Shown: positions 11,276-30,366, counted from the stretch's first letter. The stretch: DNA of 40,000 nucleotides from Myxacorys californica WJT36-NPBG1 (GCA_019359315.1 JAHHHO010000021.1:18078-58077), one strand, 5' to 3'. A program made the numbers and translations. Notes: a model not told the origin generated them from the sequence alone.

Positions 11276-12361
11276 CTAAGGATATCTCAGTTTGACTCCC
11301 TTTCCACCATTTGGAGTATTGCAATCCCAACGAAGATCACAAATTGCACAATCCTTTTCACTAATATCACCGGGTATAGCTGATTGCCAGTTTCCAGTAA
11401 CACGTGCTTGCTCAATCTGCATTACGGTCTTAGCAAATTCAATTACTGCATTATCAATTTCAGTTGGAAGAATACTAACTTCAATAAGAGCATTTACTGG
11501 TTGCTTTGAGGGACATGTAGGACCATCTAACTCGTTTAGAAAATACAGAATTGCTCTCCGTGGTAAAACTCCATGTTTAAGTTCATACAACTTGGCATAA
11601 ACTCTCATTTGGAACTCATAATTTTCTAGATCCTTAGGATTTAAGCCAACCCTTGTACTACCTTTGTAGTCCCACATTTCGTAGTCCTCGGGAACTCCAG
11701 CTGAAGTCGTAGGGTCCACAAGCAAATCAACTACACCATGCAAAATATGATTAGTTCTATCTGCCTGCAACCTATGTTCTGTGTCTATGACTCGTGGATA
11801 AAGAACTGGTCCTTCTAATGCATTGAAATACTGGAGAATTCGTACAACTTGCAACCGATTATCCGATTTAATGGCTCGAATTCCTCTACTCTTTAAGCCA
11901 TTTTCTACCTCAACAAAATATTTGACAATATCACTTGGAGGTGTAGGAGGAGCAGTACTCAATTTTTCAGCAATTCTTAGTTCATCAAAATAATCAAGAA
12001 TATCTTGATCACCAAGGATTTTGCCATTATCAGGTAGTAAACCCTTTGTTGCAGGATCAATAATACCGTGAAAATGAGAATGGCAACGGTCTAAAACTTG
12101 GTGCAGAGTAGTCCCAAAATATGTTTGTGTTTGGTAAGCAGGAGCATATTTGTGTACGTTAAAAGTTCCATACTGACGGGCACACCGCCGAAACGGAACA
12201 ATATCTTGCGTAATGCTATACCGCCGTTTCACTGGTGGAGTAGTTGGCAAAGGGACGGAGATACCACTGAATGGTTTTTTCATGATCAGTAATTGTTGAG
12301 TTCTATATGGCAACAGTATTTCGTCGGAATTCAACGTGGTCACGACCAGGAACCGGAACAC
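11276..12361 (-). CDS. PD-(D/E)XK nuclease with Cas4/AddB-like 1+3 cysteine arrangement
   Basis: 'HGVVDLLVD...MWDYKGS' gives a D...(D/E)xK core. One upstream Cys ('FRRCARQY') plus the C-terminal 'CAICDLRWDC' match the Fe-S pattern of Cas4/AddB nucleases. The probable real start is ATG at 12283 ('MKKPFSG'), 20 nt after the UvrD stop. The 12361 start would overlap UvrD by 59 nt. Confidence 0.65.
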   Translation of the reverse strand: MFRFLVVTTLNSDEILLPYRTQQLLIMKKPFSGISVPLPTTPPVKRRYSITQDIVPFRRCARQYGTFNVHKYAPAYQTQTYFGTTLHQVLDRCHSHFHGIIDPATKGLLPDNGKILGDQDILDYFDELRIAEKLSTAPPTPPSDIVKYFVEVENGLKSRGIRAIKSDNRLQVVRILQYFNALEGPVLYPRVIDTEHRLQADRTNHILHGVVDLLVDPTTSAGVPEDYEMWDYKGSTRVGLNPKDLENYEFQMRVYAKLYELKHGVLPRRAILYFLNELDGPTCPSKQPVNALIEVSILPTEIDNAVIEFAKTVMQIEQARVTGNWQSAIPGDISEKDCAICDLRWDCNTPNGGKGVKLRYP

Positions 12362-14582: not shown

Positions 14583-14623
14583 TGCTCAGATTTTTGAAGG
14601 GGCTGCTATTTTTTGGCTTTGCT

Positions 14624-14860
14624 CTAACTAATCTCTCGTCTACCCATTCGTTTACGAGATTTCTTTCGGTGCTCTAATAACTCATCTAGTAATTCAGATT
14701 GCTTATCAAGCTCCTCCCAGTCCCTAATGAAGCGTTTTAGAGCAACGTTGACCATGTCTTGGGTCGTGGGAGCAGCACTTTGATACTGCTGTTCCAGAGG
14801 CAGCCTAATTTTGCGTAATGTTTCATAAAGGTCATCCGGCACACGGACTGTTGATGGCAA
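14624..14860 (-). CDS. Small ribbon-helix-helix (CopG/Arc-like) DNA-binding protein, first gene of the minus-strand operon
   Basis: 78 aa with a TTG start. The N-terminal 'STVRVPDDLYETLRKI...' has the strand-helix pattern of RHH proteins, followed by a basic tail. It sits next to the divergent promoter region. Confidence 0.45.
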   Translation of the reverse strand: MPSTVRVPDDLYETLRKIRLPLEQQYQSAAPTTQDMVNVALKRFIRDWEELDKQSELLDELLEHRKKSRKRMGRREIS

Positions 14861-14979
14861 GGGGAAGTTACCTGAGTTAGGGACTTCCGCATTTTATTCG
14901 TCTTGACAAAAGCTTTGCTACCATGTATGCAAGCATACAGGTTTGGAAATATAGTATTTTACTTTGAGAGGAAAATTGC
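14861..14979. promoter_or_regulatory. Divergent promoter region between the RHH-UvrD-nuclease operon and the DGQHR-UvrD operon, with a 7-2-7 palindrome
   Basis: Perfect inverted repeat TGTATGC-AA-GCATACA at 14924-14939. TTGACA at 14903-14908 sits 17 nt upstream of TATGCA (plus strand). TATAGT at about 14950-14955. TAAAAT on the minus strand at 14891-14896. GAGAGGAAA lies just upstream of the ATG at 14980. Confidence 0.35.
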
Positions 14980-16074
14980 ATGGAGCTTGTACTCCCCGCT
15001 GTAGCAGTTCGACGCGGTCCCGAAGGGAATCAAATCAGTTACGTAGCGAGCTTTACATTTGGTGACATTGCTCGGTTACTAGATGATGGACGGCTGTACG
15101 TGCCGAACCAACCTGACCTACCTGACTTTGCTCAACGGAAACCGAATCCTGTTCGGATTAAAGCGATCGCCCAATACATCCTGGAAACCTACAGGGAAGG
15201 CACAACCTTCTTCCCTCCAATCTGCGTCAACGTACAACCACCGCCAACCTATCGAAACGGAAACGTCTACTTGCCTTATCACTCAGTAACGTTGCGCTTG
15301 ACTGACGGGCAACACCGTTGCTTTGGCATACGCCAAGCCATCCAGGACATTCAAACCCAAGATCTCATGAACCTTGGAATGCTCTCAAACCTGGAGTTGG
15401 GTGCTTTACTCTACTCTGGGCTACGTCTTGACTTGGAGCGTCAGGCATTCCGGGATCAAAACTTACTAGCACAAAGGCCAGGAACCTCTTTAGCCTATTT
15501 GTTCGACAAGCGATCGCCTAGTGTCCTAATTGCGAAGAGCTTAATGGAGCGAGTTGCTCAGTTTCAGGGCAACGTCGAAACCATTGAAAACGGGTTAGGT
15601 CAGCACAATCCCAAGCTAATGACCCTGTCTACATTAGTTATGGCAACACAGCATATGTTTCCAAACTTACGGTCAAAAAAGGATTTAGAAGAACGTACCG
15701 ACTGGGCTGTAGCATTCTGGATCGCTGCAGGAAGCAACTTCTTCAATGAACTCTGGGCACTAACAAGTGTGCAGGAGCGCAAACGTCAGCGTGAGCAGTC
15801 GGTAGCTGTGAGTGCTATCGTATTTCAGGCATTAGGCTTATTGGCACGGGATTTGTATCTGGAGGGAGTTTCAGGGGAAGATCTGCACAAGTGGTTAGTG
15901 AAACTAGGTGAGATAGACTGGCGACGCGAGAACAATTTCTGGTTAGAGCGAGGAGTGACGCAGGTAGGGGCACAGGGCAACCCAATTTTGCCTAACACGA
16001 GAACTACTATTGATGCTTGTCATCGTGTACTTCGTGAATTTGTAGGCATCATTCCACTTTCCTCCACTTGTTAG
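14980..16074 (+). CDS. dpdB: DGQHR-domain protein (DpdB/DndB-like, ParB/Srx-fold)
   Basis: Exact DGQHR signature in 'VTLRLTDGQHRCFGIRQAI'. At 364 aa it matches DpdB/DndB in size. The symbol is tentative. Confidence 0.7.
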   Translation: MELVLPAVAVRRGPEGNQISYVASFTFGDIARLLDDGRLYVPNQPDLPDFAQRKPNPVRIKAIAQYILETYREGTTFFPPICVNVQPPPTYRNGNVYLPYHSVTLRLTDGQHRCFGIRQAIQDIQTQDLMNLGMLSNLELGALLYSGLRLDLERQAFRDQNLLAQRPGTSLAYLFDKRSPSVLIAKSLMERVAQFQGNVETIENGLGQHNPKLMTLSTLVMATQHMFPNLRSKKDLEERTDWAVAFWIAAGSNFFNELWALTSVQERKRQREQSVAVSAIVFQALGLLARDLYLEGVSGEDLHKWLVKLGEIDWRRENNFWLERGVTQVGAQGNPILPNTRTTIDACHRVLREFVGIIPLSSTC

Positions 16075-16104
16075 CCTAATCGCAACTAGAAAGATTCCTT
16101 ATTT

Positions 16105-18339
16105 TTGCTACTGGGATCTGTTATCTCACACCTGATAAAGGGAATTCTACTAGTAAAGTGTTTTGCTAGGAATATTGTGATGCCTGAAGCTACTGATGTT
16201 CGTAAACTTGCCAGAGCTTGCATTACAAGAATCTCAAAGACGCTTATAGCCGAGCGAAGGGAACGGATCCTACCAGAATTTAGGTTAGATAGTTTTCAAC
16301 AGCGCGTGGTTGATTCACAAGCCAGGTTCATGCGCGTAGTTGCACCTGCTGGCTCTGGCAAAACACGCACTCTAATTGCTAAAGCGATTAACGTTCTCGA
16401 TGCCAACGACAATTCTCGTGTTCTTTGTCTAACCTTCACAAATGCAGCCGCGAATGAGTTTCGAGAGCGGGCTAGTAAACTACATACCTCTTTGGCAAAT
16501 CGTTTACAAGTATCAACTTTGAATGCTTTTGGTTACGACACGCTTAAAGTTACAAATGAATCTTTAAAAGTTGTTTCCCCAAGCAACAAAATTATTGGAG
16601 TTGCTTACGGAGTAATAAAGAAACTCATGCCTGAAAGTTCTATTTGGGGGGGTGAGACTCAACCTCAGTTCTATGCTCCAATATTAGAACTTGCTGATAT
16701 GACGAAAAGCCTTGGCTTTGATCACCTAGCTGATAGGAGCGAGGCTCAGGAACAGTACAGTTTTGTAGAAGCACTCGATATGGTGCCACTTCTGCAAAAT
16801 CTGATGGCAGAAATTGGAATTGAAGATAGCCCCAAGACTGCATTCACTAGCACATGGTTTCCCTTTTGGAAGAAGCTAACTGAGAAGCTTTGGAAATCAA
16901 ATTTAATCACGCTTGATGATCAAAAATATTGGGCACTAAATAGGCTTGCAAATCACGGTGGCACACAACAATGGCTATGTGGCAAAAGATTTTCCCACAT
17001 TTTAGTTGATGAGTTCCAAGATATTAATATCCTAGATCTTTTTCTTATTTCGCAAATTGCCCTGGTTACAGAAGCTTCACTGATTATTGTAGGAGATGAC
17101 GATCAATGCATCTACGAATGGCGCGGTTGTACTTCGTTATTCATTCAGCGTCCGGATCTCTTTTTCGAGTCAGTCTTAGGAGACCAAGAATTTGAAACTG
17201 TGTTACTCAAACGAAACTATCGGTGTCCCCACAATATCGTAATTCACTCAAAGCATCTCATTAATACTAATCAAGATCGAATTGAAAAAGACACAGTACC
17301 TATGCGTGAGGATGATGCCGACATTCGTATTATTCCTCTGCCAGCAGCTTACATGACTATGAATGTTGTTGATGAACTTGCCGCTTTTTTAGCTGACAAA
17401 CACCCTCAACACACAGTAGCTATTGTCGGACGCAAGAAATGCCAACTCATACCTATACAAATTTTGTTAACTCGACGGGGTACAAAATTCGCGATCGATA
17501 CTGATCTAAACGTCTTTGGCGGCAAAGCTTTTCAAGATTTCCGAAAGTTTATGGAGTTTCCTAAAATATACACTCAAGCTAGACAAACCTCAAAAAATGT
17601 TGAAGATCTTTTGGCGTTACTAAATAGAATTAAGAAAACACCCGTAAGCAAACAGGAAAATCAAGAAATCCATAAATGGTTAAGCGAGAAGAAGCCTAAG
17701 ACACTTCAAGAAGCAGTAATAAAGTTTAGTGAATATCCTGGAAAGTTTAAGAGAGGATTTGTTCAACCAAAAGAAGTTACTTCTGATTTAATATTCTTTC
17801 TTGAAAGTACTTCTGTTGTGGCATCCTTGTACCGAGCTGGCGATGTGTTCAAGGGATTTCAGAAAGATTTTGTGAAATCAAAGGAAGATATTTTTTACTC
17901 TGATCCTCCGTTTAGTCATCTTGCTGATTTAGCTGTTAACTACGACAATGATTTTGATGCATTTTTAAGTGACATAGATCGTGCAATTGAGAGAGCTGCT
18001 GGTGCTGATCCTCGCGGCGCTAAAATCGAACTTATGACTGCTCTTCGAACTAAGGGTAGGGAATTCGACACAGTTATTGTTCTCGATGTTAATGATGGTA
18101 TTTGGCCTAATAAGAAGTCTCAAGAAGAAGGACGGCTAGAAGAAGAACGCCGCTTATTTTACGTTACTGTTACACGCACTAAGAATAATCTTTTACTTTT
18201 TGAGAGTGGTAGAGTTCAGGGACAACGTATGGCAGCTTCACCCTTTATCCAGGAAATGGCACTCCCCACTAGTGCTTGGCTGTCTGATCCTCAGTTAGAG
18301 AGACTTTCACATGAGCTTTTAGCACAGTTAAAGATATAA
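16105..18339 (+). CDS. UvrD/Rep-type SF1 helicase (copy 2)
   Basis: 'VVAPAGSGKTRTLIAK', 'ILVDEFQDINILD', 'IVGDDDQCIYEWRG', 'RNYRCPHNIV', 'MTALRTKGREFDTVIVL', 'RLFYVTVTRTKNNLLLF'. The likely real start is ATG at 16180 ('MPEATDV'). Confidence 0.85.
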   Translation: MLLGSVISHLIKGILLVKCFARNIVMPEATDVRKLARACITRISKTLIAERRERILPEFRLDSFQQRVVDSQARFMRVVAPAGSGKTRTLIAKAINVLDANDNSRVLCLTFTNAAANEFRERASKLHTSLANRLQVSTLNAFGYDTLKVTNESLKVVSPSNKIIGVAYGVIKKLMPESSIWGGETQPQFYAPILELADMTKSLGFDHLADRSEAQEQYSFVEALDMVPLLQNLMAEIGIEDSPKTAFTSTWFPFWKKLTEKLWKSNLITLDDQKYWALNRLANHGGTQQWLCGKRFSHILVDEFQDINILDLFLISQIALVTEASLIIVGDDDQCIYEWRGCTSLFIQRPDLFFESVLGDQEFETVLLKRNYRCPHNIVIHSKHLINTNQDRIEKDTVPMREDDADIRIIPLPAAYMTMNVVDELAAFLADKHPQHTVAIVGRKKCQLIPIQILLTRRGTKFAIDTDLNVFGGKAFQDFRKFMEFPKIYTQARQTSKNVEDLLALLNRIKKTPVSKQENQEIHKWLSEKKPKTLQEAVIKFSEYPGKFKRGFVQPKEVTSDLIFFLESTSVVASLYRAGDVFKGFQKDFVKSKEDIFYSDPPFSHLADLAVNYDNDFDAFLSDIDRAIERAAGADPRGAKIELMTALRTKGREFDTVIVLDVNDGIWPNKKSQEEGRLEEERRLFYVTVTRTKNNLLLFESGRVQGQRMAASPFIQEMALPTSAWLSDPQLERLSHELLAQLKI

Positions 18340-18391: not shown

Positions 18392-19309
18392 CTAACTAAT
18401 TGAAGAGCTAACGACCTCCTGAAGAGCATTTCGATGTCCAAATCTTTGGTAGTCGTAGCGGGCATCCCACCAAAGCCAGTTAGTTGAATCTGCCCAAACG
18501 TTATGCTTTTTAAGTACTTCAAGGCGAGTGAGGGCCAGTCCTCCCAGTACGAGGTCGGGACGGCTCCAAGTGAGGAGATCGTCAAGTTGCTCATTAGAAA
18601 GCCCAAATTTTAAGCCGGTTGGCATACTGGGATCTGACTTGAGCAGGCCACCAAGGGCAATGTATTGGTAGCCGATGTTGCGATATTCACTGATGAGCGA
18701 TGATAAAAAGCTTCGAGGGGAGTTGTAGTGAGGAGGCAGTGCATCTTTCTGAGGAATGGGTTGACGGTTTTGCCACTTATAGAGGGCATCACCCACCTGC
18801 ACTACTCCAATTAGCTTGAATTCTCTAGGTCTCTGAGAGTATTCCTGCCATGCCAGACGGGCTAAGTGTAAAGATAGTAAAGGTTCACCAAATACATCAG
18901 GAGCAAGAACATAATCAGGGGAGACTTCTATGCACTGAGCAAAAAAGTTCTTAATGTTCTGCATCAATTTTTCTCTGCCAGCTAAAGCTTCTCCATGCAC
19001 CCAACGCCCATTTTTGTATTCTGCGTAATTTTCCACATACCAGGTAGAGCCTCTCTTCTCAAAAACATCACTGTCTAAGAAAAAGGGCTTCCCTGTGTCG
19101 CGGACACTTCTAAGAAAGTTTTTTGAACAAGATGAAAGAGGAGCCAGAATCCCAAATTCACCATCTATCTCCTTAGCTTTTCTTAATAAACCAAACCAAT
19201 CCATAGCTAAAACAGGAAAAAATTCCCTTTCATCGACAAGACAGACTAGTATGGCGTGCCACAATATGTCAGGTAGCGAAATGTACCATAGCAAGAGAAA
19301 ATTACACAT
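18392..19309 (-). CDS. Divergent TGT/DpdA-like transglycosylase paralogue (no C-terminal zinc Cys cluster)
   Basis: Its motifs are colinear with the two other TGT-like genes. These are 'FFLDSDVF' (vs DSGAH / DCGAF), 'LIGVVQVGD' (vs WGVVQGWD / MGVAQGWN) and 'YIALGGL' (vs YLAIAG / YVALGGL). The last is 'NVWADSTNW' (vs TSFDSSTW / TSFDSASP). An alternative start is ATG at 19204 ('MDWFGLL'). Confidence 0.55.
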   Translation of the reverse strand: MCNFLLLWYISLPDILWHAILVCLVDEREFFPVLAMDWFGLLRKAKEIDGEFGILAPLSSCSKNFLRSVRDTGKPFFLDSDVFEKRGSTWYVENYAEYKNGRWVHGEALAGREKLMQNIKNFFAQCIEVSPDYVLAPDVFGEPLLSLHLARLAWQEYSQRPREFKLIGVVQVGDALYKWQNRQPIPQKDALPPHYNSPRSFLSSLISEYRNIGYQYIALGGLLKSDPSMPTGLKFGLSNEQLDDLLTWSRPDLVLGGLALTRLEVLKKHNVWADSTNWLWWDARYDYQRFGHRNALQEVVSSSIS

Positions 19310-19327
19310 CGTTCCTGTTATACATAT

Positions 19328-20509
19328 ATGAGGGAAGAGGATGTTCTTCTAAAAACACATAGTTTTCTTAAGGCGCAAGGATTAAACGGGCAGTCTATAG
19401 TTCGTCTTTATACTGATGCGCATCATACCTTGTTGAAGAATCAAAAACTTCAACCGTTCCAAAGATTCACATTAAACATGGGAGACTTTGTACTTCATCC
19501 AGATTTAGTGGGTCAATTAGATGATGGTGAGTCGATATTTGCTCTAGAGGCTAAAGGGGCTGTCGGTACTAGTGAGTTAGTAAGGGGGCTAGCACAAGCT
19601 GAGCTATATCAGTCAGGATTCCACTATTCATTTTTAGCTACAGTAGTAAATGGTTTAGGAGAAAACTTACTGCAATTCGCTCGCCGTAAAAATATAGGAG
19701 TTATTGCAGTGAGCGAGGATGTAAAAATTTTAAATTTTCCAGAAGCACAGATGCCGTTTCGGAAAATCTTCCAAAGTATCGCACGGCAGATGGAAACGGT
19801 TATTCAGATTACAGAACAGCAAACTTTTCAGTATAATGCTCCCACTCATTATATGGTCTGGTCAGTAATATTAGAGCCACATATTGAATATGAAATAAGT
19901 GGAATTTCTAAGCTTCTAGAAAATTACCCTATACCCGAAGGCAAAAATAAAGATGGTTGGAAAGCGACCTTAGCAGGAGCAAGGAAATTAGGAATCGTCA
20001 ATCGTTCGGGAAATTTAATTAAGTTAACACCTATTGGTGAAGCTATTAAAGATATTCTAAGAACAAATTTAGATGAATGGATAGATGTACATGAAAAGGC
20101 TGGAGGTAAGAGAAGAAAGTACTATCTATTTGAGTATAAACCTCAAGCGGCTGCCTGTCTTCGCTTATTGCTTCTTCAAGAGCCAATACTCAATCTAGTA
20201 ATAGAGGGGCTGAAAAAATTTCCAAACTTTTCAACTACCTTTTCTGAGCTGGCAGTAGTCTGTGATGGGCTAGATCATGCTAGAGCACCTATTTTCTTCC
20301 TTAAACCAGAGGCTCTGGAATCATTAATCGATAGTAATGGACATATTGATTGGGATAAAACTGAGCCTAGAAATTATCGGGGTAGGATGTTCTTTCAATA
20401 CAAAAGAATTCTCCAACATGCTGGAGTCATAAAGCCTGATGTTTTAGGTGGTAGTAGCGTCAAAGAATATGAGAAAAATATAAGCAGAGACATTTGGACA
20501 TTAATTTGA
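19328..20509 (+). CDS. Protein with an N-terminal PD-(D/E)XK nuclease-like motif and a possible C-terminal winged helix
   Basis: 'FVLHPDLVGQLDDGESIFALEAKG' gives a PD...ExK arrangement. 'ARKLGIVNRSGNLIKLTPIGEAI' is wHTH-like. Its 3' end overlaps the next TGT-like gene by 16 nt. Confidence 0.45.
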   Translation: MREEDVLLKTHSFLKAQGLNGQSIVRLYTDAHHTLLKNQKLQPFQRFTLNMGDFVLHPDLVGQLDDGESIFALEAKGAVGTSELVRGLAQAELYQSGFHYSFLATVVNGLGENLLQFARRKNIGVIAVSEDVKILNFPEAQMPFRKIFQSIARQMETVIQITEQQTFQYNAPTHYMVWSVILEPHIEYEISGISKLLENYPIPEGKNKDGWKATLAGARKLGIVNRSGNLIKLTPIGEAIKDILRTNLDEWIDVHEKAGGKRRKYYLFEYKPQAAACLRLLLLQEPILNLVIEGLKKFPNFSTTFSELAVVCDGLDHARAPIFFLKPEALESLIDSNGHIDWDKTEPRNYRGRMFFQYKRILQHAGVIKPDVLGGSSVKEYEKNISRDIWTLI

Positions 20510-21498
20510 AGCCTTTATATTTTCTTCCATGGTGGCCATCTGACTATATTTGGAAGGAGTGGAACACTTCATTTGATATGGGTAGGATGACCGGATGGAC
20601 GAAGACATATTTGTGGGAAGTACTACCTAATCTAATTGATGGAATTGTTGTGTCTCGAATGGCTGTTTCTCTGAGACAAATCAAGTTACTTCGGCAAAAA
20701 CTTCGCTTTACCGGAGTAATTTTAGGAGACTCTGGAGCGCATTCTTATCGAAATTATGAGCACCCCCCATTTTCATGTGAAGATGTCTTAGAGTTTTATG
20801 CTCAGGGAGATTTTACCTATGGTTTAACCGTTGATATGGTTGCTTCTCCTTGGGTGCGTCCAGGAGGTTTGTCAGACGACGAATTGCAGAGTAGATTAGC
20901 GCTAACCATCAATAATGCTGAACGCTGTTTAGAGCTACATGAAAGGTATAATTATCCATTTACTTTATGGGGGGTTGTACAAGGTTGGGATGTCACAAGC
21001 TATCGATCGTGTGCTAAAGCTTTGCTCAAACTTGGGTTTACTTATTTGGCGATCGCGGGTCAACGGAAGCTCTCTTTAATCAGGGATGCAATAGATGCTG
21101 TTTCAGAAGAAGCACATCAACTTGGCAAGAAGATAAACATTCATGTATTAGGAACAGGAAATCCTAAAATTCTTGAGTTCTATATCCAAAAAGGCATTAC
21201 TTCATTTGATTCATCAACCTGGTTACGTAAAGCTTGGCTGAGTGAAAAGCATAATTACTTTCTTGTAACCGGAAAACATTATGATGCTTATCGAGCAACA
21301 AGAGTTGGATTAGGGGAATTTGATGTAAACAAGTTGAAATGGGATATAGAAATCAACTGCTCTTGCTATTTCTGTCGGAGTCTAGGACAACAAATTCTAT
21401 TATTTAGAGGACATGAAAGAAATACTCGAAGAGGGTTCCATAATATCTGCCAGTATGTTCAATTGCTCAAAGCACACCGGAAAGATGCTTTAGTCTAG
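20494..21498 (+). CDS. TGT/DpdA-like transglycosylase paralogue (short form, with Zn Cys cluster)
   Basis: 'LYFLPWW' (cf. 'YYIPEWDD' of the fusion protein), 'VILGDSGAHSY', 'WGVVQGWD', 'YLAIAGQ', 'GITSFDSSTWLRKAW', and the C-terminal 'CSCYFCRS...RGHERNTRRGFHN' (CxCxxC...H). Confidence 0.65.
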   Translation: MDINLKPLYFLPWWPSDYIWKEWNTSFDMGRMTGWTKTYLWEVLPNLIDGIVVSRMAVSLRQIKLLRQKLRFTGVILGDSGAHSYRNYEHPPFSCEDVLEFYAQGDFTYGLTVDMVASPWVRPGGLSDDELQSRLALTINNAERCLELHERYNYPFTLWGVVQGWDVTSYRSCAKALLKLGFTYLAIAGQRKLSLIRDAIDAVSEEAHQLGKKINIHVLGTGNPKILEFYIQKGITSFDSSTWLRKAWLSEKHNYFLVTGKHYDAYRATRVGLGEFDVNKLKWDIEINCSCYFCRSLGQQILLFRGHERNTRRGFHNICQYVQLLKAHRKDALV

Positions 21499-23554
21499 AC
21501 AGTTGTTCAGAACCTTGGTCAAGGTTCTCTTCTAGAAGAGCTTTGAACCGCTTATAGAAAACATAGGTATTGTGAAAACCTCGCCTACGGTTGCGATCGT
21601 TATTTCTAAAAATGACTGTTTCAATGCCCAATTCTTGACATATTAGGCACTTACATGAATTCCAAGGCTTTTCTTTAAGTATTTCTAGATAGAAAGGTTC
21701 AAGATCTATAGACTTCTTTGAATCAGTTTTGTTTTCTTGCTCTTCGATCAGCTTGCTGTAGGTCAGTACTGTTTTTAGTGTGGTTTCCAAATCCAGTGTT
21801 CCTACATCAAATTGTCTTAAAGCGTCCAGTGCTTCTTGTTCATATCTCTTAAAAGTTTCTAAATCGACAGAACCACTTTCAAGAGCACGCTTTATTTTTA
21901 ATCCTCGCTCTGTTGGGGGGACTCTGATAGCCATGAAAGTTTTGCTCGATAGAGTGTGATAGTTTTTTGTACCAGATAACCATGCTTGTCTCAGTGGACT
22001 TGCTGAGTCAAAACTCGTAACTCCCAAATGCCGAAATACTGGAATTGCCTCAATCCGAGCAACCCCAAACAAATGCAACCGCACATTTGGTTTGAGATGG
22101 GGAGAAATTGCCTTCAGGATTGGTACAATCTCCTTTGTTTGTGCACGAGCTAATCCACCTAGTGCCACATAGTCATATCCCATGCCAATTACTTCTTTCA
22201 CAGCATTGGCATAGGACTCTGGGTTCCACCCTTGAGCCACACCCATTGGAGTAAACGTATATCCTAATTCTCGATGCTTCTTGATAAAGTCTTCAGCATT
22301 CTTCAGCGTAATTTCGTACCGTTTTTCCCGTTCGCCTGGTTGAGCAAAGGGACCCACAATCAGATGGTCAATACTCACTCCATAGTTAAATCCCAAATTT
22401 TCGTAATACTCTAAAATTTCATCGGTATTGTATGGGGGCACTTCTTCCTTGATGTAACCAAATGCTCCACAATCTCCCATGATTTGCCCCGGAAACCGGA
22501 TGAAATTGTGGATTCCACCTGCTGCTTCCACCCGTGCCCGTTTTGTTTTGCTCTCATCAACCACGACTTTAGAGACTAAAATTCCGTCGTAGTTCGGTGA
22601 TGGATAAATCTCGTGAGCATAGATGTCATTATAGGGATCTCGACCTGGCGTGAGAGTATCGGTAAGAAAGCCATAGTTTGGATCTACGCGATCGTCCCAC
22701 TCTGGAATGTAATATTGCATTCCCAAGTGAACATTAGGTGCTGGCGGGCAGGGAGGAATGGCTAAATAGTCCTCCGTTTGGGGCTTAATAACTTGTTTAG
22801 AAGCCTTTTTAGCCGAAGGGATGGACAACCCCAATGTCAACTCTAACTGGGTCTCCTGCTGGTCGATCACTTTCTGAAAGACAGTTGGCTCCTCATAAAC
22901 CGTTTTTAATAATTCAGCGTCCTTACAGACTGCTTCTGCAAATCGTTTGAACAGAAATCCCTTTAACCCAACCAACCCATAGCGATAACGTTTTGCATCA
23001 GTATTGGACAACGGCAATATAAAAGTCTTCGCTGCTAAAGTCCTGATAAATCGAGTACTACTGTTAGATGCCAAAAATACTAACGTCTGGTCTGGTCTGG
23101 TTTCGACAGGCAGTGTCAGCGATCGTAGATAGTTCTCTCCTAGCAGTAAGAAAATGAGGTTATAAGGGGTGATCGCTTTCTCAAACGTACTATGCAAGTC
23201 GAGGGATCGTGCCCAATCATCTACTTCATTTACCCTCATGTTATTGAAGGTGACCTCATAAGGCGCGATCGCCCAGTTCTCCTCAATTAGCCCATACCCT
23301 GCTGACAAAATCGCGACATCAACTGCATCTTGCCCTAAAGCCTGGCGCAACAGTTGCACACCCTCCATCAGTCGAAGGTGCTGCATCCCTGTGTACATTT
23401 TTCCAGCGGTACAAAGAAACTCAGCCAATTCTGCTTCCCGTCGCTGAAGATGTTCAGGATCTTTGAAGTCTGCTAGGGTCAGTTGATTCTCAGGCTTAGC
23501 ACATTTTTCTCCAGTGCAGGATGTAACAACAAGAACACTAGGGTGGGGCATCAA
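21467..23554 (-). CDS. dpdA: DUF6884-like N-terminal domain fused to a DpdA-type DNA-guanine transglycosylase
   Basis: 695 aa. The N-terminus has '[11 protein letters not shown]...MYTGMQH...[22 protein letters not shown]', a DUF6884-like pattern. The C-terminal ~420 aa have '[16 protein letters not shown]', '[10 protein letters not shown]', 'MGVAQGWN', 'YVALGGLA', '[15 protein letters not shown]' and 'CKCLICQE...[13 protein letters not shown]'. Its start overlaps the queC stop by 4 nt (23551-23554). Confidence 0.75.
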
Positions 23555-23825
23555 AGCTCCTTACAAATAGCGACCAAATGACTAGGAACCGGAATGGAGG
23601 GTTCTAATTCCTGGTTATATAGCTCCCGTCCGATCGGCGTTGCTAAATCCGGTCTGCCTGCTTCGATCAGGGCACGATCGCGAATCCAGCAAGAGTCGCA
23701 CAACCCACAGGGTTCATCTTCTCCTTGATAACAAGACCAGGTGAGTTGAATGGGTAAACCCAATTATAATACCCGTTGCACAATGTCTACTTTGGAATCC
23801 ATCACCAGTGGAGCAACGAGCTTAG

Positions 23826-23973
23826 CCCTCATTTGTCACTCTCGCTAAAGCGAATTCTGAAACCTAGGCTTGGGGCGAGTTTCCTATTTTGAGGGCTCGA
23901 AAATGACAAAAGAGCAAAACGGAGATGCAGCAATGCTTTCAGCTTTTGCTCCTGCCAGAGTGACAAATGAGGG
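23826..23973. mobile_element. 148-bp MITE with perfect 17-bp terminal inverted repeats, inserted in queC
   Basis: TIRs are CCCTCATTTGTCACTCT (23826-23842) and AGAGTGACAAATGAGGG (23957-23973). They are flanked by the direct repeat TTAG (23822-23825 and 23974-23977), which fits the YTAR target duplication of IS5-group elements. No ORF inside. Confidence 0.8.
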
Positions 23974-24219
23974 TTAGAAGCATTTCCTTCTAGTCCAGCT
24001 TTGGAAGAGAGAGTGGCAAGGTGCTGAACAGCGTCCAGATACTCTGGTCGGCAGTCAGGATAGCCGGAGTAGTCCACTGCATTGATCCCCAGATAAATTG
24101 CTTCGGCTCCTTTGGCTTCTGCTAGGGAGAGAGCGATCGCCAGAAAGACTGTATTCCGTCCTGGTACATAGGTAATGGAAATGACACCAGGTTTAGCACC
24201 GTTAGTAGGCACGTCTATA

Positions 24220-24380
24220 AAACCCATTTGGGATCTTTTCCCGTGATACTTGGCTTTGAAGGAAGCCGTTACTCTGCGATCAATGGTAGAGCCTTCCTAG
24301 CAAAACCGTTTTCTGCCAAAAAATGAAGAAAACCAGCTAGCTGCAAGGCTTGTGATTTCAGGATTAGATCCCAAATGGGT
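24220..24380. mobile_element. ~161-bp MITE (different family) inserted in queC
   Basis: Inverted repeat CTATAAAACCCATTTGGGATCT (24215-24236) vs AGATCCCAAATGGGTTCTATAG (24366-24387), 21/22. The direct repeat TCTATA at 24214-24219 and 24381-24386 is the likely target duplication; its exact boundary is ambiguous because it overlaps the TIR. Removing 167 nt restores the queC frame. Confidence 0.7.
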
Positions 24381-24632
24381 TCTATAGCCTGGTCAGTGAG
24401 AGCAGAACCACCCCACTGCGCCAAATTCACATCTACCACAAAATGTTCCTTGATCCCCAAATGCTCAGCCACCCGCTTAGCAGCAATGAGTTCGCGATCG
24501 TGCCTTTGTCCGTAGTGGAGCGACAGGGCAATCAATTCGTAACCATCGGTGATCGCTTGAGCAGCAGAGGTTGATGAATCCAGACCACCAGACAATAAAA
24601 CAATGGCTTTGGAAGCACTCATAGGTTCACTC

Positions 24633-25272
24633 TTATCGAATATTGGTGAATTTGTAGGTTTGTAAACTGATCCGCCATTCTGGATGGCTGAGAACGTACT
24701 CAAAGATGGGTGAGTAGCTATCAGATGTACCCCATTCTGGTTGGAGAAGCCTGACTGCATCGGTTGGAATTTTGGTCGCGTAATCCTCCGCCCATACCAA
24801 GTCAGACTGGTTAGCAATTACAACCTTTAGTTCACTTACCTGTGGATAAATGCTTTCGTGCGGAGGCTCGGACTGTAGGGCAGAAGGTAATCCAGTCGAA
24901 GCTGCCACTGAAGGGGTGTGCTCCAGAGGTTCCTAGATGCACTCGCAGTCCTGCGACTCTTAACCCCCCATTGCTGAGGGAGGAAAGGTCATGCATCAGG
25001 GGTTCGCCACCCGTAATGACAACGATCGCTAGATTGACCGCTTTAGCTTCTGCAATTAGGTCGGCAGTAGGACGTTGAGGATGGCGACGAGCATTCCACG
25101 AATGCTTGGTGTCGCAGTAGGGGCAGCCTACGTCACATCCGGCTAGTCGAATAAAAAAGGCGTTCGTGCCTGTCCAGGCTCCCTCACTCTGAACCGAGTG
25201 GAAGGTTTCCACCACTGGCAGGACTGTCAAAGCTGTTTTAGAGGTTGAGGGAATGGGAATCAGGCTTGTCAT
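24633..25272 (-). pseudogene. queE: 7-carboxy-7-deazaguanine synthase (radical SAM) gene carrying a frameshift
   Basis: ORF 24832-25272 has 'FIRLAGCDVGCPYCDTKHSW', 'VVITGGEP' and 'GSFDWITFCPT'. ORF 24633-24908, in another frame, continues with '[19 protein letters not shown]...LLQPEWGTS...[13 protein letters not shown]'. Together they make a normal-length QueE. The frames differ by one extra nucleotide at about 24870-24890. Confidence 0.8.
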
Positions 25273-25283
25273 AACGATCGCTC

Positions 25284-25673
25284 CTAGTCGTCCTCGTACT
25301 CAACCCAAGAATTGGGCGTTTCGGACACAGCAACCTTCAACTTCACATCCGACAGCAATTGCTTCTTCGTCTTGTCGTAAATATATTGAGCAATCATCTC
25401 GGCAGTGGTTCCATAGCCTTCCGGCAGAACTTCGTTTAGAACCGAATGGTCGAGCCCTCCTTTGAGTAGGTCTTGCTTTGCCCAACGGAGCGTGCGGAAA
25501 TCAGCAACCATGACAGGATGAGGACAGTACTCGGAGGCATAGAGCTTATTAGAGGTTGCCTCAATTCGAACCTTATAGGTATGCCCATGCATCCGCCCAC
25601 ACGGACCGTTGTAGTCCCGGATGTAGTGAGCAGCATCAAAAGTAAACTCAGTGGTCAGTTTCCAGGTTGGCAT
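25284..25673 (-). CDS. queD: 6-carboxy-5,6,7,8-tetrahydropterin synthase
   Basis: 129 aa. 'FTFDAAHYI...GPCGRMHGHTYKVRIE' and 'LDHSVLNEV' are characteristic QueD/PTPS motifs. The ORF is intact. Confidence 0.85.
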   Translation of the reverse strand: MPTWKLTTEFTFDAAHYIRDYNGPCGRMHGHTYKVRIEATSNKLYASEYCPHPVMVADFRTLRWAKQDLLKGGLDHSVLNEVLPEGYGTTAEMIAQYIYDKTKKQLLSDVKLKVAVSETPNSWVEYEDD

Positions 25674-25812
25674 TAGGACTCATTCACTAGCTTGCATCTA
25701 CGGACAAGTGTTTGTTAAATCTACATCTAGAGCTATAAAGATTAAATTTACATCATCTAACACTATTTGTGGAATCAGTAATGTCATGATTTCTATGTAA
25801 CCGAACGATCCA

Positions 25813-27762
25813 CTAGTTTGGTTCCCCAACAGATAGAGAATCACTGTACATCTCGTAAATCTGAATTTCGATCTCGCTTGCCACGTTCTTCGAATAGTCA
25901 GGTTTTAACCCTGCTAACCTCACTACCTTCCACGGTTCAACTCGTTCACCCCGTTGATTGAGCACTTTTGCTGCCCACCTCACCCGTCGAATCTGGTAAT
26001 CCTCAAGGCTCTCTGTCACTGAATTCAAATAAGCCTGCATCATAGGCATCTGGTCAAGATGTTGTTCGATCAGTGCCAGTTGACCGATCACCTTCGCTAC
26101 TCTGCTTACGGTAATTCGGATCGGTTTCTCTTCTGCCAGTAATCCCTGTACGGCTTCCTTCACCTGAGCTAGAATTTGCTCGTCCCGTTGCTGCCAGTCT
26201 ACTCGGTTGTTGATGTAAACAGACTTCTGGACTGGGGGTGAATGCTGGTTGAGCCATTCGCGATCGTACCGATAGAGCCAAGAATAGGTGCTGGGAGCGA
26301 ATCGGCGGAGGGCTGTTTTGGAAGCGTGGGGGTACTGGGTCTGAAGGATGCTCCACGTATTCCGGTGTTGGGTTCTTAGGCTATCAGACTCACCAGATTG
26401 AGCACAGAGAAGTTCTATGGAATCTGATTCCTGCATTTTGGTCTGAGATCTCCACTTTGGAGAAAGTTCGAACCGTTGGACATAGCGATTGACCGTTCTG
26501 GGATCAACCTGAAGCTGTTTGGCAGTTTCTCGCAATCCCAGTTGTTCAACTTCTACCAGTTGCCTCAATTTCTGCTGCCATACCGGACCCACCGCTTTGA
26601 TTTTACCAATGCGACAGGCATCCGCTTCGGTCTGGTCGGGTCCAGTCCGACAGTAGATAAAGCCACAGGAGCAGGAAAAGGTTCCCACAGGCTTTTTTGT
26701 GTCGCCGCATAAGCTAATTGACAGATCCGTAACAACAGATTTTAGATAATGCTCTGCGGCAGCATTCAAGCACAACCACGGTCCTACCCCAAAGGGCTTG
26801 TAACCGTGATCGCCTCCTAACAGTTCTGCAACGGAGAGTCCCAAAAATCGAATCATCAACAGATGCCGAATAGGATGAAAGACTTTTCGGTGCTTCCGGC
26901 CAATGCTGAACAGCCAGTTTTGATCATCCTGGCCATGAACGGTTGAATCTAACGCCTGCAAAATTTCCTGGTTATAGGCAGATAAAAACTGTTTGATCAA
27001 CGAGCCTTGATGCACTCGTCCTGTCGCGGTTGCCAATCCCCGTTCAATCAGCACAGACACGTATTGCTTGCGAAACCAGTTCAAGTCCTGGGAAGGTAAC
27101 TCATTCTCTAGTAAAAAATAGGCAACCTGAGCCAAACACTTGAGGACGTTTAAGGCATGCTGGCCGAATATTTTTTCAGGTGGATGGATGCAACAGTTAT
27201 CAATCCCGGCAGCAATATATTCATGCCGGTTCATGCCTTGAAGCGGGACTGAACTATCCTGAAGAACTTCGGCATGATGAGGGCAAACTAGAGCTCCTGG
27301 GGCTTGATGGATGCGATGCCAATACAACTCGCCGTACTTCGCTTGGTCGTCGCTGCTGCACATCGGGCAAAATCGGAAGTACTTGGGGACACGGATCGAA
27401 CTAGCTCGAATCCCGACCTGGTTATGAATACCTCCTCCTTTCTCAGAGCGCATTGCCTCAAGAATTTGTTGCGATCGATCCTGCGGAAGAAAGGGAGCAT
27501 AGAAGGGATACAACGTATGGTTCTGAATCAATTTCTCGACGGTCATCTGCGAAATTAATTCCAGCTTTGCAGCTAAAGACTCTAAGTTACAGGGAAGGTC
27601 AGCAGTGGCGATCACATTCCTGGAATCAAATAACTCCTGCATTGCGAGTTTTGGACTGGTATGACCACTGCGCAGGTGATAGCGAGCCAGGATGCTGTAG
27701 AGCAGTTCGTCTGGGTACGGCTTGGGAAAGAAGCTCAACTGTGAGTACATCTGTAAAGTCAA
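25813..27762 (-). CDS. tnsD: Tn7 TnsD-like target-selector protein (TniQ family), full length
   Basis: Colinear with Tn7 TnsD. It has 'FFPKPYPDELLYSILARY', 'HTLYPFYAPF', the CCCH finger 'FRFCPMCSS...YWHRIHQAPGALVCPHH' and 'RKHRKVFHPIRH'. It also has 'YSWLYRYDREWL', 'RVDWQQRDEQI' and 'LEDYQIRRVRWAA'. Confidence 0.85.
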   Translation of the reverse strand: MTLQMYSQLSFFPKPYPDELLYSILARYHLRSGHTSPKLAMQELFDSRNVIATADLPCNLESLAAKLELISQMTVEKLIQNHTLYPFYAPFLPQDRSQQILEAMRSEKGGGIHNQVGIRASSIRVPKYFRFCPMCSSDDQAKYGELYWHRIHQAPGALVCPHHAEVLQDSSVPLQGMNRHEYIAAGIDNCCIHPPEKIFGQHALNVLKCLAQVAYFLLENELPSQDLNWFRKQYVSVLIERGLATATGRVHQGSLIKQFLSAYNQEILQALDSTVHGQDDQNWLFSIGRKHRKVFHPIRHLLMIRFLGLSVAELLGGDHGYKPFGVGPWLCLNAAAEHYLKSVVTDLSISLCGDTKKPVGTFSCSCGFIYCRTGPDQTEADACRIGKIKAVGPVWQQKLRQLVEVEQLGLRETAKQLQVDPRTVNRYVQRFELSPKWRSQTKMQESDSIELLCAQSGESDSLRTQHRNTWSILQTQYPHASKTALRRFAPSTYSWLYRYDREWLNQHSPPVQKSVYINNRVDWQQRDEQILAQVKEAVQGLLAEEKPIRITVSRVAKVIGQLALIEQHLDQMPMMQAYLNSVTESLEDYQIRRVRWAAKVLNQRGERVEPWKVVRLAGLKPDYSKNVASEIEIQIYEMYSDSLSVGEPN

Positions 27763-27811
27763 ACAATTTTGTAGCTTGATGGGACAAGCAGCTATTTGCC
27801 CTCGCTCAACC

Positions 27812-28495
27812 TCAGTCCTGCAACGAGGGTTGGTACACCTGTACGGCTAGAACCAACAAAGTCTCCTTAGCCTGCGCGATTAATGCGTCTGATACACCCA
27901 CGGTCGCTATTAGAATCGTCCCATCATCGTCCAGAAGCAGGCTGAAGGGTTCTATCGAGACTTGATAGGGAAACCATTGTCCCTGCACTGCATAGACCTG
28001 TCTCACGCCTTCCAGGTCAAGCGCAAATTCCTCAGCCAAGGGAACAACGATCAAAGACTCGATCGCATTTTGCAGTCCAACTTGCACAATTTCCAAGGGA
28101 ATCGCAGCCCCATCAGTAATTTTCTCCCGATTGGCCACTCGTTCTGACTGGCGAGACAACGCAAGCTGTTTGCTCAATTCACTCACTTCTTTAGCCGCAA
28201 ACTTGAGCCCCTTTCGGACGCCTGGCAAGTAGGGGGTGAAATCAAAGCTCAGCCCTGTTTGAGCACCCCATTGGTCGAGCTTGTCCTGGGCGCTTTCCAG
28301 CACCTGTTCCAAAAGGACGGACTCGTGTTCCCATTGCATCTGAGCCCGCTGCCGCATCAGGACTCGCGCTAACTCTGCAATCCCAAATTCAATCCCCAAA
28401 CTATAGGGCTCCCCCTCCTGCTCCATGAGAAACCCAGCCTGCTCTGCCACGCAGTTCAGAATAAACCGCTCCTGGGACAATACCTGGACGCTCAT
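27812..28495 (-). CDS. Hypothetical protein (227 aa), translationally coupled to the upstream small nuclease-like gene
   Basis: An uninterrupted ORF with an ATG start. It overlaps the upstream gene stop by 4 nt (28492-28495). I see no recognisable motif and no Walker A. Confidence 0.5.
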   Translation of the reverse strand: MSVQVLSQERFILNCVAEQAGFLMEQEGEPYSLGIEFGIAELARVLMRQRAQMQWEHESVLLEQVLESAQDKLDQWGAQTGLSFDFTPYLPGVRKGLKFAAKEVSELSKQLALSRQSERVANREKITDGAAIPLEIVQVGLQNAIESLIVVPLAEEFALDLEGVRQVYAVQGQWFPYQVSIEPFSLLLDDDGTILIATVGVSDALIAQAKETLLVLAVQVYQPSLQD

Positions 28496-28962
28496 ACACT
28501 CACCTCGGTGATGGAACAGTGATACTGCGTTTCACTCAGCAATGCGGTTCCCACAACCATTCCGGTTACGGGTCTGGAATCCAGTTCAAAGCAAGCAGAG
28601 GTGTAGGCGGACATACGAATCAGTTCGTCTTCGATCACCTGCTGTATTTGGGCCACAGAACCTGTCGTTGCCTTGGCTTCCACCAGATAGGTTTTGCCCT
28701 GCCCTCGCATGACAATATCGGGGTAATCATGATTTGGACGCGCCAGCTTGCGGCATCGAAACAACTGCTGGGCAACCAGCCCTGCAATTCCCTCTCCAAT
28801 TCCTGCAATTGCGCTCTTGCTAGGCGTGATGAGACGGTGTTCCGTGCGGCTGTAGAACAAGGGGGCATAGCCAGGCTCCAGGAAAGCGCCACTGGTGTAG
28901 GTGAAGTAGTGCTGCATCTCCTCCTGGGGACGATAATGTAGAGTAATAAAACGGTTGAACAA
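28492..28962 (-). CDS. Small PD-(D/E)XK-like (restriction-endonuclease / TnsA-N-like fold) protein
   Basis: 'IGEGIAG...HDYPDIVMRGQGKTYLVEAKATTG' gives an E...PD...ExK arrangement. The TTG at 28962 lies inside a repeat. ATG at 28917 ('MQHYF'), preceded by AGGAGGAG, is a plausible alternative start. Confidence 0.45.
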   Translation of the reverse strand: MFNRFITLHYRPQEEMQHYFTYTSGAFLEPGYAPLFYSRTEHRLITPSKSAIAGIGEGIAGLVAQQLFRCRKLARPNHDYPDIVMRGQGKTYLVEAKATTGSVAQIQQVIEDELIRMSAYTSACFELDSRPVTGMVVGTALLSETQYHCSITEVSV

Positions 28963-29089
28963 TTTGGTCGTCTGAAAAGTTCATTAATTCGTTCCATTTT
29001 TGAATAGCAGAAAAAAATGGTTGGACAATTTACTCTGCTTTCAGCTGGTTCTTGCCCTATTTCTGTAATAAAACGGTTGGACAATTTCT
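28943..29089 (-). repeat. Three direct copies of a ~23-nt motif upstream of, or overlapping, the small nuclease-like gene (transposase-binding-site-like or operator array)
   Basis: Plus-strand copies: GTAATAAAACGGTTGAACAATTT (28943-28965) and GTAATAAAACGGTTGGACAATTT (29065-29087) match 22/23. A degenerate copy is AAAAAAATGGTTGGACAATTT (29011-31). Thirteen nt beyond the outer copy the minus strand reads 5'-TGTGG (29104-29100). Confidence 0.6.
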
Positions 29090-29166
29090 AAAAGCTTTAC
29101 CACAGCTTGGTTTGAGAACTTCTTAAAGGAGGAAATTTTAGAGAACGAATTGAAGATTACGTTGAG

Positions 29167-29430
29167 TCACAGGCAGATAACCTCCTGAAGAACTTGTTCA
29201 CCAATGTGAGGTTTCAACCCGTCTTTCATGACCAAATCTACTTTCAGTTGTAAGAAGTCGCTGAAGTAGTTCTCCAGTTCACAAAATGCGATCGCATAAA
29301 CGAGTGCTTCCACAGGCTGGGTCGATCGCAGCGCCTCTGAAGTAATCACCAGTTGCTCGACACTTTGGCGAATTTTCACACCGACGCTGGCATCAATAAA
29401 CTGGTTAGCAACTTCACTGAGTCCTCCCAA
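29167..29430 (-). CDS. Hypothetical small protein (87 aa, TTG start)
   Basis: ORF only, with no recognisable motif. It is bounded upstream by an in-frame TAA. It lies between the IS5 element and the repeat array. Confidence 0.25.
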   Translation of the reverse strand: MGGLSEVANQFIDASVGVKIRQSVEQLVITSEALRSTQPVEALVYAIAFCELENYFSDFLQLKVDLVMKDGLKPHIGEQVLQEVICL

Positions 29431-29462
29431 AACTTGTTAAACGTGGGATTTTGCCGTAGTTC

Positions 29463-30366
29463 TAAGAGGACGTTTGAGAAGTAGCAGATTATACTCATTT
29501 GCTAGAATGGTAAGGATGAATCGAAAACCTTATGATACTGATGTCTCTGATGCTGAATGGATAATCCTTGAACCACTCATTCCATCATCTCAACCCGGTG
29601 GACGTCCACGTTTTAGAGACAGGCGCGAAATTGTAAATGCAGTTTTCTATATTCAGCGTTCTGGCTGTGCTTGGCGCTTACTGCCACATGAGTTTCCCCC
29701 CTGGCAAACCGTGTATTACTACTTTCGCACTTGGCGCATTGCGGGTGTGTGGAAAACTCTACTCAAAACCATTCGCGAGCAGGTGTGTCAAGCCATGGGA
29801 CGAGCCGCAACACCTAGTGCTGGAATCATCAATGCCCAATCGGTCGAAACGACGAAAGCTGGCGGAACAGAACGCGGTTATGACGGGGGTAAAAAAGTCA
29901 AAGGGCGCAAGCGTCACCTGTTGGTCGATACCCAAAGATTGGTCCTGAAGGTCAAGGTACTTGCAGCTAACACAGCAGATCAAGAAGGTGCCAAACAACT
30001 GCTCAGTGGCATTGGGGCGCAGTTTCCTCGATTGCGATATCTGTGGGTCGATGGTGGCACCACGTTTGTCAGTTGGGTCAAAGAGCAGTTGGGTTGGATG
30101 GTGCAGCGCGTGCAACATCCGAATGCTGGGTCCCATCGTCGCATTGTTGGTCCAGGTGTGGAACCTGCGCCGATTGACCGCAGTTTCAAAGTCATTGAGC
30201 GCAGATGGGTGGTGGAGCGAACGTATGGCTGACTTGGGCGATATCGACGACTGGGCAAAGACTACGAATATCTGCCTGAAACGTCGGAAGCGTTCATCTA
30301 CACTACCTCTCTCCGTACACTCCTACGGCGGCTGGCATAATCTGCTACTTCTCAAACGTCCTCTTA
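29463..30366 (+). mobile_element. IS5-family insertion sequence (~0.9 kb) with perfect 30-bp terminal inverted repeats
   Basis: TAAGAGGACGTTTGAGAAGTAGCAGATTAT (29463-29492) is the exact reverse complement of 30337-30366. The target duplication is ambiguous (possibly TA). One transposase gene lies inside. Confidence 0.85.
29516..30340 (+). pseudogene. IS5-family (DUF4096 + DDE) transposase with an in-frame TGA replacing a conserved Trp
   Basis: 'MNRKPYDTDVSDAEWIILEPLIP...GRPR...REIVNAVFYIQRSGCAWRLLPHEFPPWQTVYYYF' is a typical IS5 N-terminus. The ORF stops at TGA 30230-30232 within 'VVERTYG*LGRYRRLGKDYEYLPETSEAFIY...LRRLA', where family members have 'ER.FGWLGRYRRL'. The same frame stays open to TAA at 30338-30340. 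Confidence 0.75.

Follow-up and report, generated by a model that had tools for sequence, protein, structure and literature searches.

What becomes of a DNA modification island when its own genes for the modifying base are broken is the question raised by a locus of the cyanobacterium Myxacorys californica WJT36-NPBG1. Dpd systems, which modify DNA with 7-deazaguanines, use preQ0 (7-cyano-7-deazaguanine) from the queuosine pathway, and DpdA/B insert this preQ0 before DpdC converts it to 7-amido-7-deazaguanine (ADG) (PMC10164549). The window that we analysed, and to which all coordinates refer unless another locus is named, is a 40,000-nt stretch of this genome (GCA_019359315.1 JAHHHO010000021.1:18078-58077), on whose minus strand tnsD, queD, queE, queC and dpdA follow one another in that order (Table 1). 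Our analysis demonstrates that queC and queE are true, long-standing pseudogenes, and that the open reading frames (ORFs) of queD, dpdA, a second transglycosylase gene (TGT2), the DGQHR/DndB gene, both UvrD-like helicase genes, the PD-(D/E)XK gene, dpdJ and dpdK are uninterrupted.

Intact queD-queE-queC-dpdC::dpdA cassettes are present in at least three other cyanobacterial assemblies, namely GCA_964524315.1 (loci L002/L003), Oscillatoria sp. FACHB-1407 (L007) and GCA_053499575.1 (L101). Compared with these, the Pfam QueC profile (PF06508) is split over three reading frames in the window (profile positions 1–77, 76–150 and 174–209), and no single uninterrupted ORF covers the PP-loop, the Zn-binding Cys cluster and the rest of PF06508 as a functional QueC requires. 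A DNA alignment with L003 and L007 reveals exactly two blocks of queC that occur in the window only, of 167 nt and 152 nt. The first is a 161-bp element plus one copy of its 6-bp target duplication, bounded by terminal inverted repeats (TIRs) that are perfect over 15 nt (AACCCATTTGGGATC, insertion 2), and the second is a 148-bp element plus one copy of a 4-bp duplication, with TIRs perfect over 17 nt (CCCTCATTTGTCACTCT) and 40-nt arms that match at 80% (insertion 1). Excising both blocks restores a single queC frame whose product is 92–94% identical to the intact 240-aa QueC proteins (93% to P0001 and 92% to QueC of Oscillatoria sp. FACHB-1407), and after this repair the QueC ancestry of the pseudogene is clear from the alignment. 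The frame still holds a TAA codon two substitutions away from the Arg codon of the orthologues. Near 23588 a 1-nt deletion alters the final two codons of queC and lengthens the product by 11 residues, as the shifted frame stays open up to a TGA overlapping the ATG of dpdA. An earlier first-pass annotation of this DNA had described the two insertions and the TAA codon, all of which the orthologue alignment bears out, and had missed the deletion, which is the fourth lesion in this gene.

The same annotation had found queE split into two frames by a 1-nt indel. The split stands; the lesion itself, judged against L003, L007 and L101, is a loss of 2 nt, and a tblastn search with the L101 QueE breaks between 24877 and 24875. 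In addition queE carries an in-frame 3-nt insertion at 24967-69 relative to L003 and L007. Once repaired, the 213-aa QueE is 83–86% identical to the intact 212-aa QueE proteins. The CX3CX2C motif is kept, yet the 2-nt deletion cuts the protein short after 146 aa, and the uninterrupted radical-SAM protein of ∼212 aa that would be expected of a functional QueE is not encoded.

We also considered whether these lesions might be assembly or sequencing artefacts, or be confined to a minority of the cells in the culture. We compared the window with the Logan contigs L001 (window 24289-30175) and L100 (window 24261-11467) of run SRR11678221, a metagenome sequenced from the culture of Myxacorys californica WJT36-NPBG1 (UTEX B 3157), which originates from Californian desert soil (PMC8354539). 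The source is a short-read metagenome-assembled genome (MAG) and both assemblies come from that one run, so that they share the same reads and the comparison is one of independent assembly, not of independent sequencing. Nevertheless, the two assemblers agree 100% across every lesion. Both Logan contigs end inside insertion 2 (at 24261 and 24289), as contigs do at repeats, and L001 also ends inside the IS5-family element. Moreover, sequencing errors do not take the form of TIR insertions with target duplications, or of a stop codon that two substitutions were needed to create, perfect TIRs and target duplications at positions whose excision restores the frame cannot come from read errors, and the added missense drift described below fits long-standing pseudogenes. 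An artefact, or a restriction of the lesions to a minority of cells, is therefore barely credible as an explanation. Relaxed selection and not sequencing error, as the first-pass annotation had argued, is borne out by the independent assembly, the target-duplicated insertions and the missense excess at near-invariant columns. Programmed frameshifting or readthrough was also considered and rejected, as each orthologue is one plain ORF and the genes hold insertions.

The two insertions in queC are unrelated to each other, and their TIRs differ from those of the ISL3 and IS5-family elements, the insertion sequences (IS) of the window, among which we found no autonomous element with matching TIRs. 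Neither insertion has a further copy in the window or in the fetched loci, neither is matched in viral contigs, and no relatives of insertion 1 were seen in any of these three sets. For insertion 2, two unrelated metagenome contigs (L102 8639-8792 and L103 4248-4401) contain ∼154-bp elements with its TIRs (AACCCATTTGGGATCT), unrelated interiors and 5-bp duplications (CTTAG and CTAAG); these contigs have 56% GC and few HIP1 sites. Judged by these TIRs, insertion 2 belongs to a TIR-defined element family that reaches beyond the Myxacorys genome. With bacterial miniature inverted-repeat transposable elements (MITEs) both inserts share their small size (148 and 161 bp), the lack of an ORF, perfect TIRs of 15–17 nt, target duplications of 4 and 6 bp, and precise insertion relative to empty sites. 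The first-pass wording, two unrelated MITEs, holds to the extent that these are short, unrelated TIR elements with target duplications, and on this structural basis 'MITE' is a fair working label for both as candidates.

The intact cassettes of L101, L007 and L002/L003 share the gene order and spacing of the window, with protein identities of 82–93% for QueD, QueE and QueC. Unlike in the window, their QueE (212–221 aa) and QueC (240 aa) are uninterrupted: the cassettes of L002/L003 and L007 read queD-queE (212 aa)-queC (240 aa)-DUF6884::TGT (∼719 aa), and L101, the closest island found, has an intact QueE of 221 aa and an intact QueC of 240 aa. L101 also carries TGT2, the two genes without a family match, DndB and DpdJ in the order of the window. 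Along its length the window cassette is a mosaic, as queD-queE-queC, together with some 470 nt at the start of dpdA, most resemble L003/L007 (84–91% nt identity), and from ∼23085 onward the window is 72% identical to L003/L007 and ∼84% to L101; this switch in identity near 23085 implies recombination inside the cassette.

Altogether the queDEC-dpdA cassette is found in four different surroundings with the same spacing, twice beside Tn7-like genes; in L002 (4652-8193) tnsB-tniB-tniQ lie directly upstream of it. This suggests that the cassette travels as Tn7-like cargo. Of the parts that make up a Tn7-like transposon (a tnsA/B/C core, a target selector and ends) tnsD, an orphan, is the only one identified in the window, and no TnsB or TniB remnants were found within it. 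By comparison of these loci, queD-queE-queC-dpdC::dpdA is a conserved and apparently mobile cassette. We also considered that queDEC might be a host housekeeping operon that merely lies beside dpdA and rejected this, since the four genes recur together, with unchanged spacing, in three further genomic contexts. In the complete genome of Leptodesmis sichuanensis (CP075171.1) two copies of the cassette are each damaged differently (L088 5726-9051 and L089 7576-8666). In one, a 1659-bp IS splits queC, and of dpdA only the DUF6884 part is left; a 99.8% identical copy of this IS lies in the other cassette locus of that genome. The second cassette has a deletion by which queD is fused to queE.

To return to Myxacorys, all five structural lesions lie in the 1.36 kb of queE and queC, and none in the remaining ∼20 kb of island coding sequence. 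By our own arithmetic, the chance of all five falling in queE and queC out of ∼22.2 kb (3427-25673) is (0.061)^5, or ∼1e-6. We then aligned the window proteins, repaired where necessary, with their ∼110–120 best homologues and scored deviations at those columns in which at least 97% of the homologues agree. QueE deviates at 5 of 74 such near-invariant columns (G29S, P81L, E114G, S131C and H207Y; homologue mean 0.44, maximum 3) and QueC, the stop aside, at 4 of 127 (P93S, P160S, A178V and R206W; homologue mean 0.77). For the DpdC-DpdA fusion the count is 0 of 144 (43 columns in DUF6884 and 101 in TGT; homologue mean 0.90), which gives Fisher p values against DpdA of 0.004 for QueE, 0.047 for QueC and 0.012 for the two pooled. 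QueD keeps H16, C25, H29, H31, D58, D75, H76, E92 and E118, each shared by at least 85% of a diverse set of 109 representatives. Its sole difference at such columns is the conservative L18I, all catalytic and Zn residues are kept, and the protein is 91–92% identical to intact orthologues.

Comparison with L101 covers the rest of the modification side. DpdA is 91.5% identical over 694/694 aa without an indel, TGT2 94.8% over 330/330 aa and the DndB-like protein 84% over 361/364 aa; the 305-aa and 393-aa proteins without a family match are 94% and 59% identical to their orthologues, QueE is ∼82% identical and the QueC fragments are 77–89% identical. The first-pass statement that queD, dpdA, the DGQHR gene and the helicase and nuclease genes are uninterrupted is confirmed by their ORFs, which are full length where an L101 orthologue is available. 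Together these comparisons support a decay specific to queC and queE that probably reflects relaxed selection, and they show the two pseudogenes as having drifted since at otherwise invariant residues, with queD, DpdC-DpdA, TGT2 and the DndB-like partner intact and well conserved.

QueE and QueC catalyse obligatory steps in the conversion of 6-carboxy-tetrahydropterin (CPH4) via 7-carboxy-7-deazaguanine (CDG) to preQ0. As both genes are dead and both steps are obligatory, the island cannot make preQ0 alone. The first-pass annotation had offered, without choosing among them, three scenarios, in which (i) a chromosomal queCDE set outside the window supplies preQ0, (ii) the modification arm is dead or (iii) the system has switched substrate. 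Among these, the indirect evidence favours (i), or salvage, because DpdC-DpdA, TGT2 and the DndB-like protein show good conservation, an unexpected state had the modification arm been useless throughout the decay of queC and queE. DpdA would then still get preQ0 from outside the island, either from housekeeping queuosine-pathway genes elsewhere in the genome or by salvage. Such a supply would render the island copies of queC and queE redundant and relax selection on them, and ordinary mutagenesis by MITEs and indels in a transposon-rich region would subsequently have removed them. That redundancy arose in this manner, from a supply that we infer, is in our judgement rather likely. In its favour, preQ0 gene sets are 'sometimes duplicated' in published dpd carriers, and some islands include the preQ0 transporter gene yhhQ (PMC5699537).

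A possible model for a host copy is the housekeeping-type operon L090, which has the same queD-queE-queC order and encodes proteins with identities to those of the window of 83% (QueD), 80% (QueC) and 71% (QueE) in a codon alignment (82% for QueC by BLASTP). No dpdA follows it, and its neighbours are genes for a MoxR ATPase and a methyltransferase. The que genes of the cassette evidently derive from the housekeeping queD-queE-queC type, as far as these identities can tell. Since L090-type operons without dpdA exist, chromosomal copies of this type occur in relatives, and the closeness of the cassette genes to such operons makes it plausible that the host has a copy with a similar function. QueC genes found elsewhere in cyanobacteria without dpdA show 51–75% identity to that of the window.

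Several points weigh against an outside supply. No second queC or queE from the Myxacorys genome was found, and no Myxacorys-named protein is among the 120 best QueC matches (at least 76% identity) or the 120 best QueE matches (∼62% or more), even though a sister MAG of the same project has named proteins in the searched database (P0373). Any housekeeping copy must therefore be below ∼76% (QueC) or ∼62–65% (QueE) identity, and may be absent; this bound is compatible with the 51–75% of the other housekeeping QueC genes and proves nothing. The conservation of dpdA could also mean that the preQ0 supply was lost too recently to show, and the queC lesions may have polar effects on dpdA expression. 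Finally, the MAG comes from a non-axenic culture, so a minority of the reads could carry an intact allele.

If the absence of a second queC or queE among the best matches is taken at face value, the whole modification arm might be functionless: no preQ0 would reach DpdA, the DNA would be unmodified, the restriction arm would be inactive, weak or tolerated, and dpdA and its neighbours would have escaped disruption so far. The orphan tnsD and the IS-filled region would suit an island that is degenerating as a whole, and one Leptodesmis sichuanensis cassette has lost dpdA as well. Loss of Dpd modification is reportedly viable in Salmonella Montevideo, where restriction of unmodified DNA is said to be modest. 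However, the conservation contrast disfavours this main rival, as far as sequence can tell. The ∼20 kb of undisrupted island coding sequence stands against five disruptions in 1.36 kb, and the 0/144 near-invariant deviations of DpdA against 9/201 in QueE and QueC indicate a decay long enough for drift. DpdA, TGT2 and the 305-aa protein are moreover full length and 91–95% identical to L101. We thus regard a dead modification arm as unlikely, though the strongest of the alternatives.

Alternatively, the substrate or its source may have switched, to preQ0, preQ1 or queuine salvaged from a heterotroph-rich biocrust or to a different base, with queD kept for another purpose. The retention of queD, alone among the three que genes intact and with all its catalytic residues, would fit such a switch, as would the non-axenic culture from soil crust; the literature describes both salvage and dpd islands that contain preQ0 transporters (PMC5699537). 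Set against this, no transporter gene was recognised among the Pfam-scanned ORFs of the window, queD at 390 nt could have escaped lesions by chance, and DpdA shows no change at near-invariant columns, contrary to what a re-tooled binding pocket would predict. We consider a switch decidedly improbable, and give still less credence to the specific version in which the DpdC-DpdA system runs on a crust-scavenged 7-deazaguanine or another base in place of self-made preQ0, with queD in a separate role. If that version were true, the island would be a defence system reliant on an external metabolite for self-marking.

The locus shows that at least one host can dispense with the preQ0 genes of a mobile Dpd cassette and keep its DNA-modifying enzymes, in line with published work in which Dpd relies on the preQ0 pool of the queuosine pathway. 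Myxacorys californica UTEX B 3157 offers a natural 'knock-out' for asking whether housekeeping or salvaged preQ0 suffices for DNA modification, and queC and queE of this locus are flagged here as pseudogenes for annotators. Pseudogenes are common in the mobile islands of transposon-rich cyanobacterial genomes. What we describe is ordinary gene decay in a known kind of defence island, with no new mechanism, and the reliance of Dpd on cellular preQ0 is already accepted.

Table 1. Features of the Myxacorys californica window in order of position, with the observations on which each assignment is based
Feature	Position	Strand	Basis or remarks
ISL3 element, complete-looking	1096-2929		50-nt TIRs at 88%, 553-aa transposase
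Putative restriction arm, encloses DndB-like gene too	5631-18339	both strands	Pfam and PADLOC; uninterrupted ORFs
DpdK-like phospholipase D (PLD) protein	5631-6182	-	PADLOC DpdK 82 bits
DpdJ-like helicase, 1662 aa	6154-11142	-	PADLOC DpdJ 533 bits
PD-(D/E)XK nuclease	11276-12361	-	
UvrD-like helicase	12303-14582	-	
DndB-like DGQHR protein (DpdB analogue), 364 aa, intact	14980-16074	+	Pfam DndB 249 bits
UvrD-like helicase, 744 aa	16105-18339	+	
Two conserved genes of unknown function, 305 aa (-) and 393 aa (+), between TGT2 and helicase	18392-20509		
TGT2, second, shorter TGT/DpdA-like paralogue, 330 aa, intact	20506-21498	+	TGT and DpdA-like matches
dpdC-dpdA fusion, DUF6884 and DpdA transglycosylase, 694 aa, intact	21467-23551	-	NCBIfam, Pfam, PADLOC
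queC pseudogene, 7-cyano-7-deazaguanine synthase, three frames	23551-24622	-	three Pfam QueC (PF06508) fragments
1-nt deletion at queC 3' end	23587-23588	-	orthologues CCGGTATCCTAG, window CCGGT-TCCTAG
queC nonsense codon TAA	23764-23766	-	CGA in L003 and L007; CGG in L090 (Arg)
Insertion 1, non-coding TIR element, 148 bp	23826-23973	.	ttag duplicated at 23822-25 and 23974-77
Insertion 2, non-coding TIR element, 161 bp	24220-24380	.	tctata duplicated at 24214-19 and 24381-86
queE pseudogene, 7-carboxy-7-deazaguanine synthase, ORFs of 146 aa and 91 aa	24633-25272	-	Radical_SAM match on 5' ORF only
queE frameshift, 2-nt deletion	24876-24877	-	orthologues TTCTCCCCTAAGCGATCC, window TTCTGCCCTA--CAGTCC
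queD, 6-carboxy-tetrahydropterin synthase, 129 aa, intact	25284-25673	-	Pfam PTPS 106 bits
Orphan Tn7-like tnsD, directly upstream of queD	25813-27762	-	Pfam TnsD 410 bits and TniQ
IS5-family element, 904 bp	29463-30366		perfect 30-nt TIRs

Beyond the cassette, the 305-aa and 393-aa proteins between TGT2 and the helicase have no family match in Pfam, NCBIfam or PADLOC. On the restriction side, the 744-aa UvrD-like helicase gene is replaced in L101 (7784-9167) by two small ORFs of 167 and 295 aa, and the downstream UvrD and PD-(D/E)XK genes are merely 21–28% identical between the window and L101. From this divergence it follows that restriction-side genes have been swapped and the modification side conserved. 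Upstream of tnsD two overlapping ORFs of 227 and 156 aa (27812-28962, minus strand) have no Pfam match; gene calling on the Logan contig finds them too, at 227 and 141 aa, and they may represent transposon-associated genes, either diverged or novel. Scanning the window for Rfam families and tRNAs returned nothing, neither a preQ1 riboswitch nor a tRNA attachment site, and a promoter and terminator scan of 23300-26000 gave sites no commoner than in shuffled controls.

The assignment of the island to Dpd begins with DpdA, which scores 485 bits with NCBIfam NF041059 (cutoff 200) and 433 bits with the PADLOC DpdA model. DUF6884 is the DpdC domain (PMC12235509), and the 694-aa protein is therefore a DpdC-DpdA fusion: the domain is matched by PF21818 at 37.7 bits (cutoff 30) over fusion residues 70–157, from which DpdC activity is predicted, and PADLOC DpdC matches are weak (fusion residues 5–111). 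Such DUF6884-DpdA fusions are widespread in cyanobacteria (1189 matches at E ≤ 1e-20), and one relative, P0324 (1205 aa), has the DndB, TGT and DUF6884 Pfam domains in a single protein. The DndB-like protein carries the DGQHR domain (94.7 bits, cutoff 58.85) and is named DndB by PADLOC, and no DpdB-specific model matches it at E ≤ 0.001. TGT2 reaches 185 bits, under the DpdA cutoff, and may act as a partner without catalytic activity or provide a second specificity; its gene converges on the dpdA 3' end and overlaps it. The DpdK-like protein scores 77.7 bits with NCBIfam (cutoff 100). With the NCBIfam and PADLOC models no DpdD/E/G/H/I match was found in the island, and DpdF appears merely as a weak secondary match on the DpdJ-like protein.

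Finally, for comparison, the Dpd system of Salmonella Montevideo and others (dpdA-K; PMC10164549, PMC5699537) shares with the window DpdA, a DndB/ParB-like DGQHR partner, the DpdC domain, DpdJ- and DpdK-like genes, embedded preQ0 genes and a mobile-element setting. In contrast to that system, the window has DpdC fused to the N-terminus of DpdA and a further, short TGT paralogue; none of its proteins reaches the equivalog models for DpdB and DpdK, both queC and queE have decayed to pseudogenes, and two UvrD-like helicases and a PD-(D/E)XK nuclease take the place of DpdD/E/F/G/H/I, none of which was recognised. By its predicted gene content, the window is thus a Dpd-type 7-deazaguanine DNA modification and restriction island, and an ordinary addition to the known Dpd family.

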